Positions 18,871 through 33,810 of a DNA stretch of 64,000 nucleotides are shown piece after piece; within the stretch, counting starts at the first letter, position 1; each line of letters opens with the position of its first letter. The DNA is from an uncultured Gemmatimonadales bacterium (GTDB taxonomy: Bacteria; Gemmatimonadota; Gemmatimonadetes; Longimicrobiales; RSA9), in contig OY970192.1 in the NCBI GenBank assembly GCA_963708135.1, positions 4,032,001 through 4,096,000 on the forward strand. Reading direction: 5' to 3'. Position numbers and translations under genes: made by a program. The notes under the pieces were generated by a model that made no database searches, was not told the origin of the DNA, and saw only the letters and a program-made list of their open reading frames with translations.

Positions 18871-19824
18871 TCACGCTGGTTCCTCCCTTGCCGCCCGGCC
18901 GGCACCCCCGGCACGCCGGAGGACGTGGCGCAGGCCGCGCCACCCCGCCAGCGCCCGCATGTCGTCCTCGTCGCCCCACCGCCCGTCCGAGCGTTGCGAG
19001 ACCGTGAGCAGGCCCGCCACGCGCTCGATCGATCGCTCCATCTCCGGAGCGGCGTACCCACGCTCGACCGCGCGCATGAGCAGCGCCATGCTCTCGAAGG
19101 GATCCACGCCCGCCCAGGTTCCTTCGCCGCGCTGGGTGCGCGCCAGCGCCGTCAGTCCCTGCGCCACCGCCTCGACATTGCGTTCCGTCCCGGCCGCCTC
19201 CAGGAGGGCGGCCAGCACCGCGTGGGCGGCGTGGGCCGAGAACACCGGCTCGCCCTCCGGCGCGGCCCAGATCGAGAGGATCCGCCTCAATGCCTCGATG
19301 TGCAGCTGGACGGCCGTACCCGTGCCGCCCCAGACCAGCACGGCCCGGAGCGCAGCGGAGGACAGCACGAGCGCCTGCTCTGCCCCCGGCCCGGCGCCCG
19401 CCAAGGGCGGGCCCTCCTGCACCGGGTCGCCCGGCCCCGGCGCATAGAAGCCCGCCGCGAAGTGGTGGCACAGCCCGACCCCGTGAGCCGCCGGCGTGCA
19501 GCCATCGCCGAAGCGACCCGGCCGGCCCGCCTGCGTCCGCAGCCAGTCGAGCGCCGCCTTCGCCGCGGGCTCCATGGACGCGCCCTCGCAGCCGAGCTCC
19601 CGGAGCCGGACGAGCGCCGCCGCCGTGCGGGCGATGCTGCCCTTCCAGCTCCCGTCGGGCCCGTGTCCCGCGACCAGGGTCGCGCACCAGCCCGCCACCA
19701 GCGTCGCGTCCGCCGGCGCCGCTACCCCACCCTGCCTGCGCGCCAGCACCCCCGCCGGCGTCCGCTCCGCCAGCAACCAGGCCTCCAGCCGCGCGAGCGA
19801 CCGCCTCAGATTCTCTTCGTTCAC
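18871..19824 (-). CDS. Hypothetical protein with prenyltransferase/squalene-cyclase-like QW repeats
   Basis: HGPDGSW, QRGEGTW and QRSDGRW repeats separated by helical segments. Confidence 0.55.
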   Translation of the reverse strand: MNEENLRRSLARLEAWLLAERTPAGVLARRQGGVAAPADATLVAGWCATLVAGHGPDGSWKGSIARTAAALVRLRELGCEGASMEPAAKAALDWLRTQAGRPGRFGDGCTPAAHGVGLCHHFAAGFYAPGPGDPVQEGPPLAGAGPGAEQALVLSSAALRAVLVWGGTGTAVQLHIEALRRILSIWAAPEGEPVFSAHAAHAVLAALLEAAGTERNVEAVAQGLTALARTQRGEGTWAGVDPFESMALLMRAVERGYAAPEMERSIERVAGLLTVSQRSDGRWGDEDDMRALAGWRGLRHVLRRAGGAGRAAREEPA

Positions 19825-24842: not shown

Positions 24843-25625
24843 CTACATCGCGATGATGTGGTATCCGGCGTCGACAAAGAGGATCTCGCCGGTGACGCCG
24901 CGCCCCATGTCGCTGCACAGGAAGAGGGCGGCGCTTCCGACCTCGTCCTGCGTCACGTTGCGCCGCAGCGGCGCGCGCTCCTCCGCGATGCCGAGCATGG
25001 TACGGAACCCCTTCACGCCGGCGGCGGCCAGGGTCTTGATCGGCCCGGCGCTGATGGCGTTGACGCGAATCCCCTCGGGGCCCAGGTCCGCGGCGAGGTA
25101 ACGAACGCTGGCCTCGAGGGCGGCCTTGGCCACCCCCATGACGTTGTAGTTCGGCACGACCTTCTGGGCGCCGTAGTAGGAGAGCGTCACGATGTTGCCG
25201 CCGCTGGCCGCGAGCAGCGGCGCGGCGCGGCGCGTCAGATCCACGAGCGAATAGGCGCTGATCTCGAGGGCGCGCAGGAAGCCGTCGCGGCTCGTCTCCA
25301 CGAACCGGCCATCGAGATCCTTGCGGTCCGCGAAAGCGATGGAATGGACGAGCACATCCAGTCCACCCCAGTGCTCCCGCACCTGACGGAAGACGGCGCC
25401 GAGCTCCTCGTCCGAGGTCACATCGCATGGCAGGATCAGCTCCGCCCCGATCTCCTCGCCGAGCGGGCGCACCCGCTTCTCCATGGTCTCGTTGACGTAG
25501 GAGAGGCCGATCCGCGCCCCCTCGCGCCGCATGGCCTGGGTGATCCCCCAAGCAATGCTCCGCTCGTTCGCCACCCCGAACACCAGCACTCGCTTGCCGT
25601 CGAATAGACCCGCGCCGCTACCCAT
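24843..25625 (-). CDS. fabI: Enoyl-ACP reductase
   Basis: GVANERSIAWGI, HSIAFA, YNVMGVAKAALE, AGPIKTLAA. Confidence 0.95.
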   Translation of the reverse strand: MGSGAGLFDGKRVLVFGVANERSIAWGITQAMRREGARIGLSYVNETMEKRVRPLGEEIGAELILPCDVTSDEELGAVFRQVREHWGGLDVLVHSIAFADRKDLDGRFVETSRDGFLRALEISAYSLVDLTRRAAPLLAASGGNIVTLSYYGAQKVVPNYNVMGVAKAALEASVRYLAADLGPEGIRVNAISAGPIKTLAAAGVKGFRTMLGIAEERAPLRRNVTQDEVGSAALFLCSDMGRGVTGEILFVDAGYHIIAM

Positions 25626-25774
25626 CGTTCACCTGTTCGCCGGTTCAGGAGGAGTGCGGGCTCGACCACCCGTCACCGTTGCGGTAACTTGGGTGCCGTA
25701 CGGCGCGGGGGCAAGGTTCGACCGGGGCGGTGAGCATTGCCTTTTTTAGAGTTAGCAGCCACTTTAGAGGCCGT

Positions 25775-26758
25775 TTGGCGAAGAGCTCAGCAAGAGTCCT
25801 GGTCACGGGGGCGACGGGGTTCGTCGGTTCGCATCTGGTCGAGGCGCTGACGGCGGGGGGGTTCGCCGTGCGCGCGCTCGTGCGGGCCACGAGCGACGTC
25901 CGAAGGCTGCGCGAGCTGGGAGTAGAGCAGGTCGTCGGCTCGCTGGAAGACCCGGCCTCCCTCGCGCGGGCGGTGAACGGCGCCGACACCGTGCTGCACC
26001 TGGCCGCGCTGGTTCGCGCGCGCGGGCCGGCGGAGTTCGCGCGCGCGAACGCGAGCGGCACCGAGGCGGTGGTCCGCGCGAGCGCGGAGGCGGGGGTCGG
26101 CCGGCTGGTGTACCTCAGCTCGCTGGCCGCCGTGGGGCCGGTGCGGGAGGGGCGAGCCGTCGAGGCCTCGGACGAGCCGCGCCCGCTTACGGCATACGGC
26201 AGGACCAAGCTGGCGGGCGAGCGTGCGGTGCTGGGTGAGCGGCGGCTGCACGGGGTCGTCCTGCGGGCGCCGGCGGTGTACGGGCCGGGGGACCGCGAGC
26301 TGTTCACCTTCTTCCGGCTGGCCGCGCGTGGCGTGTTTCCGCTGCCCGGCGGCCCCGAGCGCTCGGTCCAGCTGATCCACGTACGGGATCTGGCCCGTGC
26401 GCTGGTCCTTGCCGGGAGCGCTCGGGAGGCGGAAGGTGTGTACCACGTTGCGGACCCGACGGCGTACGGCTGGCCGGCGCTGGCCCGGGCGATCGGGGTG
26501 GCGGTCGGGCGGGAGGTCCGCATCGTGCGGCTCCCGCCCAGGCTCGTTACCGCGGCAGCGGCGGGAAGCGAGCTGGCGGCGGCGCTGGTGAGGCGCGCGA
26601 CGATCTTCGACCGGGACAAGGCGCGCGAGTTGCTTGCCCCGGGGTGGTTGTGCGAAACTGGAGCGGCTCGGCGGGAGCTCGGGTTCGAGACCGAGATTCC
26701 GCTGGCCGAGGGACTCGGCGAGACCGCGGCGTGGTATCGAGCGCGCGGCTGGCTGTAG
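25775..26758 (+). CDS. Extended SDR / NAD(P)-dependent epimerase-reductase (candidate 3-keto-sphingolipid reductase)
   Basis: VTGATGFVG, YLSS, YGRTK, VYGPGD; first gene of the spt operon. Confidence 0.8.
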   Translation: MAKSSARVLVTGATGFVGSHLVEALTAGGFAVRALVRATSDVRRLRELGVEQVVGSLEDPASLARAVNGADTVLHLAALVRARGPAEFARANASGTEAVVRASAEAGVGRLVYLSSLAAVGPVREGRAVEASDEPRPLTAYGRTKLAGERAVLGERRLHGVVLRAPAVYGPGDRELFTFFRLAARGVFPLPGGPERSVQLIHVRDLARALVLAGSAREAEGVYHVADPTAYGWPALARAIGVAVGREVRIVRLPPRLVTAAAAGSELAAALVRRATIFDRDKARELLAPGWLCETGAARRELGFETEIPLAEGLGETAAWYRARGWL

Positions 26759-26785
26759 CTGGCTGGTCTGAACTGGTGGAGATCG

Positions 26786-27967
26786 ATGAGCTTATTCGAT
26801 AAGTGCAGACGCTTCACTCGGGCCCGGGAGGCGCAAGCCGCCGGTTACTACCCGTACTTCACGCCGATCGAAGCGTCGTACGATACCGAGGTCGTGATCC
26901 GCGGCCAGCGGAAGGTGATGGTCGGCTCGAACAACTATCTCGGGCTGACGCACCATCCGCGTGTGCTGGAATCGGCCGAGGCGGCGCTGCGGCGCTACGG
27001 GAGCGGGTGCACGGGGAGCCGGTTCCTTAACGGGACGCTGGATCTCCACGAGGAGCTCGAGGAGCGGCTGGCGCGCTTCATGGGGAAGGAGTCGGCGCTG
27101 GTGTTCAGCACCGGCTACCAGACGAACCTCGGGGTGATCTCCGCGCTGGTGGGGCGGGACGACCACCTGTACTCGGACAAGCTGAACCACGCGAGCATCG
27201 TGGATGGGTCGCGGCTGGCGTTCGGGGTAGTGCACCGGTACACGCACGGGGATCTGGCGGCGCTGGAGCGGGAGCTCTCGCGCTCACCGCAGGACGCGGG
27301 GAAGCTGATCGTCACGGACGGCATCTTCTCCATGGAAGGCGACATAGCGGATCTCCCGGGGATCGTGGCGCTGGCGGAGTTCTACGGGGCGGAGGTAATG
27401 GTGGACGACGCGCACTCGCTGGGAGTGCTCGGGGAGCGCGGCGGCGGCACGGCGCAGCATTTCCGGCTGGAGGACAGGGTCGCGCTGGTGATGGGCACGT
27501 TCTCGAAGTCGCTGGCCTCGATCGGCGGGGTGATTGCGGGGCCGGAGCCGGTGATCCACTACCTGAAGCACCACGCGCGCTCGCTGATCTTCAGCGCGAG
27601 CATGCCGCCGTCTGCGGTGGCCTCGGTGCTCGCGGCGCTGGACGTGATCGAGGAGGAGCCGGAGCGGCGCGCGGCGCTGTGGCGAAACACGCGTCGCATC
27701 CAGCAGGGCCTGCGGGCGCTGGGCTACGACACGGGGAAGAGCGAGACGCCCGTGATCCCGGTTCTGATCGGCGACATGGAGCGGATGCTGGTGTTCTGGA
27801 AGGAGCTCTTCGACTTCGGCGTGTTCACGAACCCGGTCACGCCGCCAGCGGTGCCGGAGAACTCGTGCCGGCTGCGGATCTCGGTCATGGCGACGCATAC
27901 GGACGAGCACATCGACTTCGTGCTGGATGCGTTCGCGCACGTGGGACGCCGGATGGCGGTGATCTGA
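26786..27967 (+). CDS. spt: Serine palmitoyltransferase (alpha-oxoamine synthase family)
   Basis: YPYF, GSNNYLGL, GCTGSRFLNGT, DDAH and GTFSKS (SPT-type PLP lysine motif); next to a ceramide-synthase-like gene. Confidence 0.8.
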   Translation: MSLFDKCRRFTRAREAQAAGYYPYFTPIEASYDTEVVIRGQRKVMVGSNNYLGLTHHPRVLESAEAALRRYGSGCTGSRFLNGTLDLHEELEERLARFMGKESALVFSTGYQTNLGVISALVGRDDHLYSDKLNHASIVDGSRLAFGVVHRYTHGDLAALERELSRSPQDAGKLIVTDGIFSMEGDIADLPGIVALAEFYGAEVMVDDAHSLGVLGERGGGTAQHFRLEDRVALVMGTFSKSLASIGGVIAGPEPVIHYLKHHARSLIFSASMPPSAVASVLAALDVIEEEPERRAALWRNTRRIQQGLRALGYDTGKSETPVIPVLIGDMERMLVFWKELFDFGVFTNPVTPPAVPENSCRLRISVMATHTDEHIDFVLDAFAHVGRRMAVI

Positions 27968-27971
27968 GGGG

Positions 27972-29159
27972 ATGGCGGCGAACGCGCAGGACGCGGTAGG
28001 ACGGCAGGTGGAGCAGGGTGGCAGGAGCACCGGAGAGGTCCAGGTCAGGCCGGTAACGAGCCGGCGTGAGCTGGACCTCTTCATCAAGCTTCCCTGGAAG
28101 ATCTACCGGGACGATCCCGCGTGGATCCCGCCTCTGCTGATGGATGTCCGGAACGTGCTGGACCGCGGCAAGCACCCGTTCCACGAGCATGCGGAGGTGG
28201 AATACTTCCTGGCGTGGCGAGACGGCTCGGCGGTGGGGCGGATCGCGGCGATCGTGAACCGCCTGCACCTCGACTTCCACGGCGACAAGCTGGGGTTCTT
28301 CGGGCTGTTCGAGGCGCCCGACGACGCCTCCGTCTCGGCCGCGCTGCTGCGCGCGGCGGAGGCATGGCTGCGCGAGAGGGGCATGGAGCGGGCGCAGGGG
28401 CCGCAGAACCTGTCCACGAACGAGGAGCTGTGCAGCCCCGGAGTGCTGATCGAAGGCAACGACCAGCCGCCGTTCATCATGATGGCGCACACGCCGGCGT
28501 ACTACGCCCGCCTGCTGGAGGACGCGGGGTACCAGAAGGCCAAGGACCTGCTGGCGTACAAGGTCCTGCCGAATCCTCCGGAGCGGCTGGTGAAGGGGGT
28601 GGAGCGGGTGGTCCGCTCAAAGGCGGCGGGGCTCACGCTGCGCAAGTTCAACCTGAAGGACTTCGACGCCGACGTGGCGCGCATGAAGGAGGTCTACAAC
28701 AGCGCGTGGGAGCGGAACTGGGGCTTCGTGCCCATGACGGACGCGGAGTTCAACCACCTGGCCAAGCAGCTCAAGCCGGTAGTGGACCCGGACTACGCCC
28801 TGATTGCGGAGGTGGGAGACGAGCCGGTCGGTTTCGCGGTCGCGCTGCCGGACTACAACCAGGCGATCCGGCACACGGATGGCCGGCTCTTCCCGCTCGG
28901 GCTGCTGAAGCTGCTGTGGTACCGGCGCAAGATCAACCAGCACCGGGTGATCACACTGGGGCTGAAGCCGGCGTATCGGCGTTTCGGGGTGGACGCGATG
29001 ATGTACCTGCGGATGTTCGAGACGTCGAGGGACCTCGGGCACGCGGGCGCCGAGGCGTCGTGGATCCTGGAGGACAACTGGGAGATGCGGCGGGGTCTGG
29101 AGCGGATGGGCGCCTGGACGTACAAGACATACCGGCTGTACGAGAAGCCGCTCGGCTGA
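27972..29159 (+). CDS. Bacterial ceramide synthase-like GNAT N-acyltransferase
   Basis: VGRIAAI, GFFGLFE, MMAHTPAYY, WERNWGFVP, SWILEDN; directly downstream of spt. Confidence 0.75.
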   Translation: MAANAQDAVGRQVEQGGRSTGEVQVRPVTSRRELDLFIKLPWKIYRDDPAWIPPLLMDVRNVLDRGKHPFHEHAEVEYFLAWRDGSAVGRIAAIVNRLHLDFHGDKLGFFGLFEAPDDASVSAALLRAAEAWLRERGMERAQGPQNLSTNEELCSPGVLIEGNDQPPFIMMAHTPAYYARLLEDAGYQKAKDLLAYKVLPNPPERLVKGVERVVRSKAAGLTLRKFNLKDFDADVARMKEVYNSAWERNWGFVPMTDAEFNHLAKQLKPVVDPDYALIAEVGDEPVGFAVALPDYNQAIRHTDGRLFPLGLLKLLWYRRKINQHRVITLGLKPAYRRFGVDAMMYLRMFETSRDLGHAGAEASWILEDNWEMRRGLERMGAWTYKTYRLYEKPLG

Positions 29160-29171
29160 AAGCGCCGGTCC

Positions 29172-29591
29172 TCAGGCGGCGGCGCGCGGGCTGGCGGCGG
29201 GCAAGGCGAGCGCGATGGTCCAGCTCGAGGTGGAGATCTGGTTCTCCACCGTGAGGTGGACCTCCTGCCCGGGGCTGACCAGAAGAACCTCCGTCTGAAA
29301 ATACGAGTTGGAGCCGATCGGGTCGACCAGCAACCGGAGGTCGGACGCGGTGAGCAGCTCGCGCGGCAGCCTGAAGACGGCCTCCCGCCCCGTGGTCACG
29401 TCGCCGAGCCGGTAGCGCACGCCGGTGCGGGTGGCGTAGATCACGACATCGCTCCAGTTGTGGTTGGTCACGCGGACGGTGATCGGCTCCTGGGGCTCGT
29501 ACTCGTCATTCCCCTTGTGCTTGAACGGATAGAAGCAGGCGGAGAGGGCGAGGGCAGCGATCGCGGGGGTGGCAAGGCGTCGGATGATCAA
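29172..29591 (-). CDS. Small lipoprotein (beta-sandwich-like)
   Basis: AGGAGG plus TTG start; lipobox LSAC. Confidence 0.75.
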   Translation of the reverse strand: MIIRRLATPAIAALALSACFYPFKHKGNDEYEPQEPITVRVTNHNWSDVVIYATRTGVRYRLGDVTTGREAVFRLPRELLTASDLRLLVDPIGSNSYFQTEVLLVSPGQEVHLTVENQISTSSWTIALALPAASPRAAA

Positions 29592-29743
29592 GGGGACCTC
29601 CTGCCGAAGGCGCGGCGGAGCGGGTTCTCCCGGCGAGCGCGGGACCAGGGAAGGAATACACCGACCCTCGGGCGGAGTTCTCCATCCGGTCGGGGTGCAC
29701 CCAGACATCTAGCCGGCCGGGGGCCGGAGCGGATCCAGGGAAG

Positions 29744-30709
29744 ATGGCGCAAGCGCAGCAGCGCTCGGTCGCGGAAGGCGCGGCGGGGGTGTCCCTCGAG
29801 GAGCGTCCCGACGGGGGCGGACTCCAGGACAGGCGGGCGATGGACCGCCAGTTCGGGGTCTACGCCATTCTCTCCAGCACGGCGCTGGCCTTCGCGCACC
29901 GCCCCTCCACCTGGCCGCTCATCGCGGCGCTGCACCTGACGGCGGCAGGCCTCGCGGCCGGGCTCGGACCCTTTGCGCGGGTCACGGGGACGCTGCGGCG
30001 GCGCCTGCCGGGCGTGACGGAGCTGCTGCACGACTGGTATCCGCTGATCCTCATGCCGCTCCTCTATACGGAGCTCGCGACGCTGAACCTCGCGGTCTGG
30101 GGCGGGCGGTACTTCGATCCGGTCATCCTGTCGGTGGAGCAGGCGGTCTTCCACGCGCAGCCGAGCCGGATGCTCTGGCAGCGCTTCCCGTACCTGCCGC
30201 TCTCGGAGCTGCTGCACAGCGCGTATCTCTCCTATTACCTGATCATCTACGTCCCGCCGATCGTGCTCTACGCGATGGGCCGGCGGGGGGATTTTCGGCG
30301 GCTCGTGTTTCCGCTCATGCTCACGTATTTCGTGCACTACCTGGTCTTTGTTTACTTCCCGGTCCAGGGTCCTCGCTACCTGTTTCCGGCGCCCGGCGGG
30401 GCGCTGGCGCGGGGACCGGTCTACCGGCTCGCCCACCACATCCTGGAGTCCGGCTCGAGCCGCGGGGCGGCGTTCCCGTCATCCCACGTGGCGGTCTCCA
30501 CGGCGCAGGCCCTGCTGGTAAGGCGCTTTCTGCCACGCCTGTTCCCGTACGTCGCGGTGGCGGCGCTGCTGCTTGCCGTGGGCACCGTCTATGGCGGATT
30601 CCACTACGCCACGGACGCGTGCGTCGGGTTTCTCATGGGGATTCTCCTGGTGCTCCTCGCCCCGAGGGTGAAGCGGCTCCTGCTGGCGCGTTCCGGGGCC
30701 TCCGCGTGA
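29744..30709 (+). CDS. PAP2-superfamily membrane phosphotransferase/phosphatase, Aur1/IPC-synthase-like
   Basis: Multiple TMs; YLSYY, FPVQGPRY, AAFPSSH, FHYATD. Confidence 0.75.
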   Translation: MAQAQQRSVAEGAAGVSLEERPDGGGLQDRRAMDRQFGVYAILSSTALAFAHRPSTWPLIAALHLTAAGLAAGLGPFARVTGTLRRRLPGVTELLHDWYPLILMPLLYTELATLNLAVWGGRYFDPVILSVEQAVFHAQPSRMLWQRFPYLPLSELLHSAYLSYYLIIYVPPIVLYAMGRRGDFRRLVFPLMLTYFVHYLVFVYFPVQGPRYLFPAPGGALARGPVYRLAHHILESGSSRGAAFPSSHVAVSTAQALLVRRFLPRLFPYVAVAALLLAVGTVYGGFHYATDACVGFLMGILLVLLAPRVKRLLLARSGASA

Positions 30710-31440
30710 GCCGACGGCGCCTGCTGCTCGCGGGCGCGACGGCGCTCGCGGCCGTGATCGTATGGAGCGCGTCCGCGGCTCTCCCGTGGCCCGCGCGGGC
30801 GTGGACAGCGCTCCTGCTGACGCTGCTGCCGGTGGTGATGACTGCGCAGGCGGCGGCGGTGGGCGAGCTGCGGGGGGAGGTGCCGCGCACGGCGATCTAT
30901 GCCAGTTCTGCGGTGGCGCTGTGGGGGCTGGCGGCGATCACCGTGATCGTCACCTGGCGCAGCCATCTCGGCCGGGCGAATCTGCGGCTGGTGCCGCTCG
31001 GGCCGGGGCCGCTCCTGGGCTGGGCAGCCGCCACGACGGCTGCCGGGCTGGCCGTGCTGTTCGCCTGGCGGCTGCTCGGCGCGCGGGAGTCGCCGCTGCT
31101 GCGGGACCTGCTCCCGGTGACGGGCCGTGACCGGCTGGGATTCATCGGGCTTTCGGCAACGGCCGGAGCGACCGAGGAGCTCGTCTTCCGCGGCTTCCTG
31201 CTGTTCGCGCTGACGGCGGCCTCCGGATCGGTGGGACTGGCGCTCGTGCTCAGCTCGGCGGTGTTCGGCGTCGCCCATGCATACCAGGATGCGGCGGGCT
31301 CGGTGCGGGCGGGTGTGCTGGGCGCCCTGCTGGCGGGGTGCGCGGTGCTCGCCGGAAGCCTGTTTCCCGCGATGCTGGCCCATGCCGCCATCGACCTGCT
31401 CTCGGGTCTCTGGCTCTCGCGCTGGCTCGTCGGCGACTGA
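30706..31440 (+). CDS. CPBP/CAAX-family intramembrane metalloprotease
   Basis: EELVFRG, FGVAH, HAAID. Confidence 0.9.
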   Translation: MSRRRLLLAGATALAAVIVWSASAALPWPARAWTALLLTLLPVVMTAQAAAVGELRGEVPRTAIYASSAVALWGLAAITVIVTWRSHLGRANLRLVPLGPGPLLGWAAATTAAGLAVLFAWRLLGARESPLLRDLLPVTGRDRLGFIGLSATAGATEELVFRGFLLFALTAASGSVGLALVLSSAVFGVAHAYQDAAGSVRAGVLGALLAGCAVLAGSLFPAMLAHAAIDLLSGLWLSRWLVGD

Positions 31441-33390: not shown

Positions 33391-33810
33391 GTGATCATTC
33401 CCTGCAGCTACGAGGAGCTGATGGCGCTGACGTCCGGCGCGGAACGCGTGCTTGGCGTGCTGGCCGGAGGCACGGGCGTGCTGGCGCCGCCCGAGGAAAC
33501 GGCGGAGGTCGAGGCGCTGCTCAGCCGGCTGGACGGGGACCTGGAGGTCCACACGCTGGCGGAGCAGCAGCGCGTCGCCCACGCGGTCGAGTTGATCCTG
33601 GAGACGCTCCGGGAGCGGATGGACGAGGCGGTGCTGACGCAGCACGTGGGGGCGGAGGACGCCGTCGTCGCCTACTTCGACTATGCGCACGTACTCACGA
33701 TCGATGACCGGCTGTCGCGCGTTGGCGCGCAGATGACGGGCATGATCGAGCTGATGACCGGGGCTCCGCCGGACGAGGACACGGCGCGGGAGATCAACTT
33801 CGGGGACTGA
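33391..33810 (+). CDS. Hypothetical acidic helical protein
   Basis: 139-aa ORF with SD-like upstream sequence and GC3-biased codons. Confidence 0.75.
   Translation: MIIPCSYEELMALTSGAERVLGVLAGGTGVLAPPEETAEVEALLSRLDGDLEVHTLAEQQRVAHAVELILETLRERMDEAVLTQHVGAEDAVVAYFDYAHVLTIDDRLSRVGAQMTGMIELMTGAPPDEDTAREINFGD

Follow-up and report, generated by a model that had tools for sequence, protein, structure and literature searches.

Bacterial ceramides are made by an already known pathway that uses a serine palmitoyltransferase (Spt), an N-acyltransferase (bCerS) and a reductase (CerR), the last two of which were reportedly defined by Stankeviciute et al. in 2022, as told in papers that cite that work. 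The closest described systems include those of Caulobacter crescentus and Escherichia coli BL21 (PMC9386255, PMC11087976 and PMC11324152, in their accessible parts), where bCerS is also called aca or YghO and CerR is called epi. Here, we examined a 64,000 nucleotide stretch (the window; positions 4,032,001 to 4,096,000 of contig OY970192.1) of an uncultured Gemmatimonadales bacterium, in which clustered genes for the same three families are present. The cerR, spt and bcerS homologues at 25775–29159 are likely to produce dihydroceramide, with serine and fatty acyl thioesters as substrates, a reading for which we put the probability at about 0.86. What is new is the probable carrier, a Longimicrobiales-like member of the Gemmatimonadota. 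A literature search found no paper joining Gemmatimonadota, sphingolipid and serine palmitoyltransferase, the main texts searched do not mention the phylum, and the phylum list of PMC11334938 may include Gemmatimonadota.

The host genome is a single contig of 5.45 Mb with 72% G+C. Unlike Caulobacter and BL21, it has no orthologues of AcpR, AasR or LptF2/G2 at E 1e-4, its Spt is of a Bacteroidota-like type, and an Aur1-like gene is linked to the cluster instead. Nor were orthologues of the ceramide kinase or CDP-alcohol head-group genes of Roseomonas found in it at the same threshold. As single-protein queries, BL21 AcpR had no match in the genome at E 1e-4 and BL21 AasR had only weak generic partial matches (21–28%, with one short 37% stretch), none in the locus. 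As the dedicated AcpR and AasR pair of the rhodobacterial five-gene system was not found, that carrier system is probably not used. The trio also stands side by side, as an spt-bCerS-cerR operon, in Chitinophaga, Dyadobacter, Runella, Pedobacter and other Bacteroidota, at 52–60%, 42–45% and 29–36% identity, respectively. The window differs from this operon in that cerR comes first and in that its Spt falls below the NCBIfam cut-off for Bacteroidota.

The CerR-like short-chain dehydrogenase/reductase (SDR), the synthase and the GNAT protein are encoded on one strand with intergenic gaps of 27 and 4 bases, and the motifs YPYF, GCTGSRFLNGT, GTFSKS, GRIAA, GFFGLFE and WGFVP were found in the translations (6/6). 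These coordinates, gaps and motifs, and a fabI gene head-to-head with the SDR gene, had been given in an initial annotation of the window, and all were reproduced from the list of open reading frames (ORFs). The G+C content of the ceramide region is that of the remaining window. Three sphingolipid proteins of E. coli BL21 all have their best matches within a 3.4-kb stretch of the 5.45-Mb genome (rough chance of such clustering about 1.5e-6), and as the arrangement is also conserved, we conclude that the clustering is not due to chance. The trio is together in 28/30 loci of the same family and order, its own locus counted, and the other two are cut by contig ends. It is likewise together in 69 of 80 loci of the genome collection, which represent several phyla, mostly Bacteroidota. 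In an even sample of 151 Gemmatimonadetes genomes, surveyed at E <= 1e-90 for the synthase and E <= 1e-60 for the GNAT protein, the former was present in 79, the latter in 82 and both in 77; in 74 of these 77 the two genes are neighbours. Three families are mostly without the synthase with these queries (2/32, 1/31 and 2/10 positive). Among the loci fetched, an SDR gene lies beside the synthase gene in 18/18 non-family loci that have one. The order cerR-spt-bCerS is that of the window's order of Gemmatimonadota, and spt-bCerS-cerR is found elsewhere.

The synthase groups with serine palmitoyltransferases and apart from KBL, from BioF and from the cysteate enzymes. Its best match among solved structures is the Sphingobacterium multivorum SPT (PDB 8GUH, 3A2B; PMC10196870), at 443 bits and ungapped over 385 residues, against 273 for KBL, 253 and 235 for cysteate acyltransferases and 232 for BioF. 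With E. coli BL21 Spt, which is reported to make 3-oxo-sphinganine in vivo (PMC9386255), it shares 42% identity and forms a reciprocal best-hit pair. Of the 25 active-site residues around pyridoxal phosphate (PLP) and serine that we took from the accessible text of PMC10196870, 21 are identical in the window Spt and the four that differ all equal the BL21 residue. A tree of 49 synthases (one partial row left out, no ALAS row, labels from a scan of 33 proteins) placed the window Spt inside a Gemmatimonadota clade (97/93) whose branching follows families. The enclosing 35-row group (89/93) holds all six rows above an SPT cut-off and none above a KBL or BioF cut-off, the KBL and BioF rows forming other clades. 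The initial annotation had noted SPT-type signatures in the product of 26786–27967.

Three points weigh against this placement. The 35-row group is not starred and takes in, besides the SPTs, one unexplained paralogue and the cysteate clade; PLP contacts of a general kind, not specific to serine, make up many of the 25 residues compared; and the top NCBIfam model, the Bacteroidota SPT model NF047600, gave 545 bits where the cut-off is 640. Scores against NF047599 (415 bits, cut-off 500) and NF047603 (335 bits, cut-off 670) were also below. As the other non-Bacteroidota cluster SPTs likewise fall short of the NF047600 cut-off, at 510–588 bits, we conclude that the NCBIfam SPT model is clade-limited.

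The synthase also scored 412 bits on the BioF model (cut-off 426), 414 on the BioF/Kbl subfamily model, 318 on the KBL model (cut-off 493) and 257 on the ALAS model. Being below both the SPT and the BioF cut-offs, it would be given a generic name and not, as had been predicted, the label BioF. The BioF scores could be taken to mean that it uses another amino acid, through BioF or KBL chemistry, with cysteate (giving sulfonolipid) or with alanine or glycine (giving 1-deoxy bases), and the S. multivorum SPT is reported to take alanine and glycine too, at low efficiency. This is very improbable, as the synthase is 170–210 bits nearer to the SPT structure than to those of KBL, cysteate acyltransferase or BioF, falls outside all three clades, retains the serine-contacting residues and has no bio genes in its vicinity. 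The cysteate fatty acyltransferases CapB/SulA (PMC13692747, as far as its accessible text goes) share the alpha-oxoamine synthase fold, and their family is the long-branch Bacteroidota clade within the 35-row group, separate from the window Spt. Two further alpha-oxoamine synthases are encoded in the genome, of which one falls in the KBL clade and the other is unplaced. A second synthase at G000:C1:4706612-4707967 (L254:5613-6968), adjoining a zinc-type dehydrogenase gene, sits on a long branch in the SPT-containing group and below all family cut-offs. Priestia megaterium plasmids encode a protein about 50% identical to the window Spt along its entire length, and are absent among the 40 of 46 bCerS matches listed.

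For the other two steps, Caulobacter bCerS and CerR were represented by homologues from E. coli BL21 and Roseomonas; PMC9386255 names ECD_02850, ECD_02852 and ECD_02854 as the BL21 homologues of Caulobacter sphingolipid genes. The GNAT protein is 39% identical over 383 aa to BL21 YghO, with which it forms a reciprocal best hit as the sole match in the genome, and 43% identical to a protein of the Roseomonas sphingolipid locus. Its predicted structure (mean predicted local distance difference test, pLDDT, 91) is a tandem-GNAT fold, with tandem GNATs as the top fold matches (E 1e-13), and no solved bCerS was among its PDB matches in single-sequence, profile and fold searches. Homology to the bCerS family, proposed in the initial annotation, thus stands with YghO as the stand-in. 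The label 'hypothetical' predicted there is carried by some public relatives, while others are called N-acetyltransferase, YghO or dATP pyrophosphohydrolase. A stand-alone bCerS homologue (48%) is present in four genomes of one genus (G057, G043, G130 and G162); these have no synthase match at E 1e-90, and the loci L141 and L142 have no spt or SDR gene nearby.

The SDR is 33% identical to BL21 epi/CerR, again a reciprocal best hit, at 129 bits versus 60 for the next paralogue in the genome. In a tree of 47 SDRs it groups with BL21 epi/CerR and the Bacteroidota cluster SDRs (local support 95), and seven SDR paralogues from the same genome fall outside the CerR-containing clade. The use of stand-ins for the Caulobacter proteins tells against these assignments, as does the SDR tree, which was built with FastTree only and is uneven in composition. 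Reciprocal best hits, trees and synteny nevertheless agree with the earlier view of the trio as a ceramide operon of Spt, a GNAT-type bCerS and CerR.

We infer each activity, the acyl donor, the head group and the order of the second and third steps from homology, conserved residues, predicted folds, gene order and co-occurrence, the step order being that indicated by Caulobacter and Bacteroides fragilis mutants. Spt, with PLP on K241, would condense L-serine with a long-chain acyl-CoA or a housekeeping acyl-ACP to give 3-ketosphinganine. The tandem GNAT would N-acylate this to 3-oxo-dihydroceramide, and the SDR would then reduce the ketone with NAD(P)H. The order of acylation and reduction is disputed in the literature, and the same genes could act in the eukaryote-like order, the SDR reducing 3-ketosphinganine first and the GNAT protein acylating sphinganine. 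One group has proposed this for Caulobacter, and Bacteroides thetaiotaomicron is reported to accumulate sphinganine. Caulobacter CerR is reported to be periplasmic (PMC11087976). The longest ORF of the window SDR starts with a GTG at 25730 (342 aa), and an alternative TTG at 25775 (327 aa), which follows an AGAGG motif, is the more likely start. If the TTG is right, the protein begins at the nucleotide-binding strand, with no room for a signal peptide, a point in favour of reduction first. We consider reduction first to be unlikely, as cerR mutants of both Caulobacter (PMC11087976) and B. fragilis (10.1101/2023.05.23.541633) are described as accumulating keto-ceramide, and the KDSR of B. thetaiotaomicron is a different gene.

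The initial annotation was right about the trio and stopped one gene short, omitting a conserved fourth gene that encodes a PAP2_3 membrane protein resembling Aur1, the yeast inositol phosphorylceramide (IPC) synthase. This PAP2 gene is present in 70/77 class genomes with spt and bCerS and in 5/74 without, and in 68 of 71 genomes its distance from bCerS is at most 1.5 kb. It follows bCerS in the window's family and cerR in other families, where the order is spt-bCerS-cerR. Beyond the class, it was found at four loci, one of them unclassified and the others from Eisenbacteria and Krumholzibacteria, and Nonomuraea gave a weaker match. The catalytic residues of Aur1 are a His/His/Asp triad. H248, H287 and D291 of the window protein, invariant in 24 PAP2 sequences (one row of which is a frameshifted ORF), align to H255, H294 and D298 of Aur1. 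Yeast Aur1 was the best match in a profile search (E 4.5e-5) and the top Foldseek match (E 2.6e-4) of the predicted structure (pLDDT 90). Across the whole protein, the fold resembles that of Aur1 (PDB 9VJ4, 9IVC) with a Z score of 16.0 and a root mean square deviation (rmsd) of 5.0 over 263 residues, against Z scores of 12.8 for LpxE, 12.0 for PgpB and 11.3 for SMSr. From its sequence and modelled fold, the PAP2 protein is, on balance, probably a ceramide head-group phosphotransferase that makes a phosphosphingolipid with an inositol or ethanolamine head.

Several observations temper this assignment. Identity to Aur1 is 15–18% and the rmsd is 5–6 Å in a fold that lipid phosphatases share, the co-occurrence is among kin and follows families, amounting to few events and not 151, and an opposite-strand gene separates PAP2 from bCerS in this genome. 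Four environmental Bacteroidota genomes that carry the trio had no full-length PAP2 match. Instead of transferring a head group, the protein might be a lipid phosphatase or phospholipase with a substrate such as ceramide-phosphate or a lipid carrier: the fold is common to LpxE, PgpB and YodM (Z 10–13), YodM was the best PDB match in a single-sequence search, public labels read phosphatase PAP2 family, and only 4 of the 30 top Bacteroidota homologue loci have a cerR- or bCerS-like neighbour at a distance of 1.5 kb or less. We think this rather unlikely, because the profile search and both fold searches put Aur1 first with the whole protein covered, and because the gene is tightly linked to ceramide genes across families and at the Eisenbacteria and Krumholzibacteria loci. 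In addition, the arginine of the SR..H...D motif present in the phosphatase YodM is missing from the PAP2 protein, as it is from Aur1. As a head-group transferase, the PAP2 protein would receive on H287 the phosphoinositol (or phosphoethanolamine) group of a glycerophospholipid, releasing diacylglycerol, and pass this phospho head group to the 1-OH of ceramide. Such phospho-histidine chemistry is that of the Aur1/SMS family. Two further PAP2_3 matches lie in tandem at G000:C1:1229853-1231396 and, being too dissimilar, escape a tblastn search that uses the window PAP2 as query.

Elsewhere in the genome, a CDP-alcohol phosphatidyltransferase gene overlaps a myo-inositol-1-phosphate synthase gene (G000:C1:2318319-2320302; L256), and phosphatidylserine decarboxylase and LpxC are also encoded. 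Given the first pair and the decarboxylase, phosphatidylinositol (PI) and phosphatidylethanolamine are both possible donors; given LpxC, lipopolysaccharide is likely also made. Inositol-phosphate synthase is present in 143/151 class genomes and does not track PAP2, a further point against the reading as a head-group transferase, and it was rejected as a head-group marker. Its distribution suggests that nearly all Gemmatimonadetes have inositol lipids or solutes. A GT4 glycosyltransferase gene, a candidate for acting on ceramide, lies beside 4/8 Gemmatimonadetes clusters without PAP2 and 0/30 with it, an alternation that fits an exchangeable head-group slot. In B. fragilis, ceramide is reported to be glycosylated by AgcT, which is a GT4 enzyme (10.1101/2023.05.23.541633).

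The PAP2 protein of the window can also be compared with BT_1522, described as the PI-dihydroceramide synthase of B. thetaiotaomicron (PMC9246714). BT_1522 lies in an inositol operon (PMC9246714, PMC8791184) and the window PAP2 gene lies with ceramide genes; the comparison of the two is one of gene context. According to the accessible text of PMC8791184 (2022), residual IPC is present in the BT1522 mutant, and no homologue of the insect ethanolamine-phosphoceramide synthase was found in B. thetaiotaomicron. Our literature search, which most subscription papers lie outside, found no published identification of a bacterial ethanolamine-phosphoceramide synthase. Ethanolamine-phosphoceramide is the most abundant sphingolipid of Bacteroides.

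When a plasmid collection was searched, the best match of the window PAP2 was a Bacteroides finegoldii protein (30%). Its gene overlaps an SDR gene whose product groups with the CerR-like proteins of the clusters, and the same pair is found in Prevotella. In B. finegoldii, the PAP2 gene lies between the cerR-like gene and dusB and not in the context of BT_1522, and its product is a candidate ethanolamine-phosphoceramide synthase. A broader proposal is that the ceramide-linked PAP2 subfamily of the window, B. finegoldii and Prevotella is a second class of bacterial ceramide phosphotransferase, distinct from BT_1522, that makes ethanolamine-phosphoceramide, and that Gemmatimonadetes are a phylum-wide source of phosphosphingolipids in which some lineages have swapped in a GT4 enzyme. 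We regard this as doubtful. The Bacteroides link consists of two complete records and one cut by a contig end, and the 4/30 count above, the four environmental Bacteroidota without a full-length match and the presence of a homologue in 55/251 Bacteroidota genomes speak against a general role. The Prevotella PAP2, used as a query at E 1e-30, had no match in these 251 genomes, a sample that includes no known-positive genome. A separate cassette of genes for an extended SDR, a CPBP/Rce1-like protein and an Aur1-like PAP2 protein was seen in 12/20 Bacteroidota loci fetched (L205-L215, L221). Neither spt nor bCerS lies within about 6 kb of it, and its SDR, a paralogue, falls outside the CerR clade. 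The cassette is reminiscent of the PAP2-CPBP pair of the window (Table 1), the two CPBP proteins being barely similar.

Table 1. Features of the ceramide locus in the window and related genes at other loci
Feature	Position	Strand	Remarks
fabI enoyl-ACP reductase, divergent neighbour	24843..25625	-	260 aa; NCBIfam FabI models
CerR-like extended SDR reductase	25775..26758	+	327 aa, probable TTG start; motifs TGATGFVG, YGRTK; Pfam Epimerase/3Beta_HSD
Probable serine palmitoyltransferase (Spt), Bacteroidota-like type	26786..27967	+	393 aa; PLP lysine K241 in GTFSKS
bCerS/YghO-family tandem-GNAT N-acyltransferase, ceramide synthase homologue	27972..29159	+	395 aa
Lipoprotein-like ORF, LSAC lipobox	29172..29708	-	between bCerS and PAP2; no Pfam match
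Aur1/IPC-synthase-like PAP2_3 membrane enzyme	29744..30709	+	Pfam PAP2_3; invariant H248, H287, D291
CPBP/Rce1-like intramembrane protease-family gene	30706..31440	+	Pfam Rce1-like; overlaps PAP2 stop codon (GTGA)
GT4 glycosyltransferase, candidate for ceramide	L137:8503-9621, L136:3341-4525, L140:8841-10256, L153:5551-6726
cerR-like SDR then Aur1-like PAP2	L156:6721-8684; L158:6639-8591		B. finegoldii, Prevotella

The fabI gene faces the SDR gene across a gap of 104–149 bases, depending on the SDR start. NCBIfam FabI models are the top 12 matches of its product, all just or well below cut-off, and it is the sole close copy in the genome. The initial annotation suggested that it might be co-regulated with the cluster. 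We could assess 39 loci that extend far enough upstream (L031 and 38 of the 40 fetched, with L034 left out as a duplicate), and a fabI orthologue was head-to-head with the SDR gene in only two of them (L031 and L116), both from very close relatives. Most loci of the same family have a class-III aminotransferase gene immediately ahead of the SDR gene and in the same direction, which makes fabI look locally inserted; it is probably a lineage-specific neighbour and not part of the pathway. That fatty-acid elongation and ceramide synthesis are coupled through a common divergent promoter is quite improbable. The head-to-head layout, its recurrence in the two relatives and the occupation of the slot by a FabL-like SDR in L124 and L133 favour such coupling, as does the failure to find AcpR and AasR, given which Spt may draw on housekeeping acyl-ACP. 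However, fabI is missing from the slot in 37/39 loci, the FabL-like protein is a different one that scored 149 against a cut-off of 328, and the genome's only close fabI copy is a housekeeping gene. A scan of the region found no consensus promoter, with no promoter-like and one terminator-like site, no excess over shuffled sequence.

The lipoprotein-like ORF, whose true start is probably downstream of 29708, has five paralogues in the genome and occupies this slot only in L031, L032 and L116; we do not count it as a pathway member. The CPBP/Rce1-like gene is near the cluster in 19/20 same-family loci and 0/20 loci of other families, making it a family-level partner of the cluster. We also excluded from the pathway the upstream genes for a class-III aminotransferase, an LD-carboxypeptidase and a cobalamin adenosyltransferase, whose linkage is confined to the window's family, together with the downstream metallo-hydrolase gene (linked only in L031 and L116) and tag gene (linked only in L124). 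A 140-aa protein without a Pfam family, encoded at 33391-33810 (-), is downstream of the cluster in 17/20 same-family loci and no others. A 317-aa protein encoded at 18871-19824 (-) has a squalene-hopene cyclase C-terminal match that is weak and below cut-off (E 1e-4).

With the pathway known and Spt-like genes reported across 38–40 phyla in a 2024 metagenomic study (PMC11334938, in its accessible part), the addition of one more lineage is a modest gain. About half of the 151 Gemmatimonadetes sampled carry the cluster (77 with spt and bCerS) and whole families are without it, which offers a ready lipidomics comparison in cultured strains. The clusters also bear on the reading of soil ceramides as eukaryote-derived, and the linked Aur1-like gene makes it testable which bacterial enzyme adds phosphoethanolamine to ceramide. 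If the broader proposal is true, Gemmatimonadetes, which are common in soil, would be a phylum-wide source of phosphosphingolipids, and some of their lineages would make glycosylceramide via GT4.

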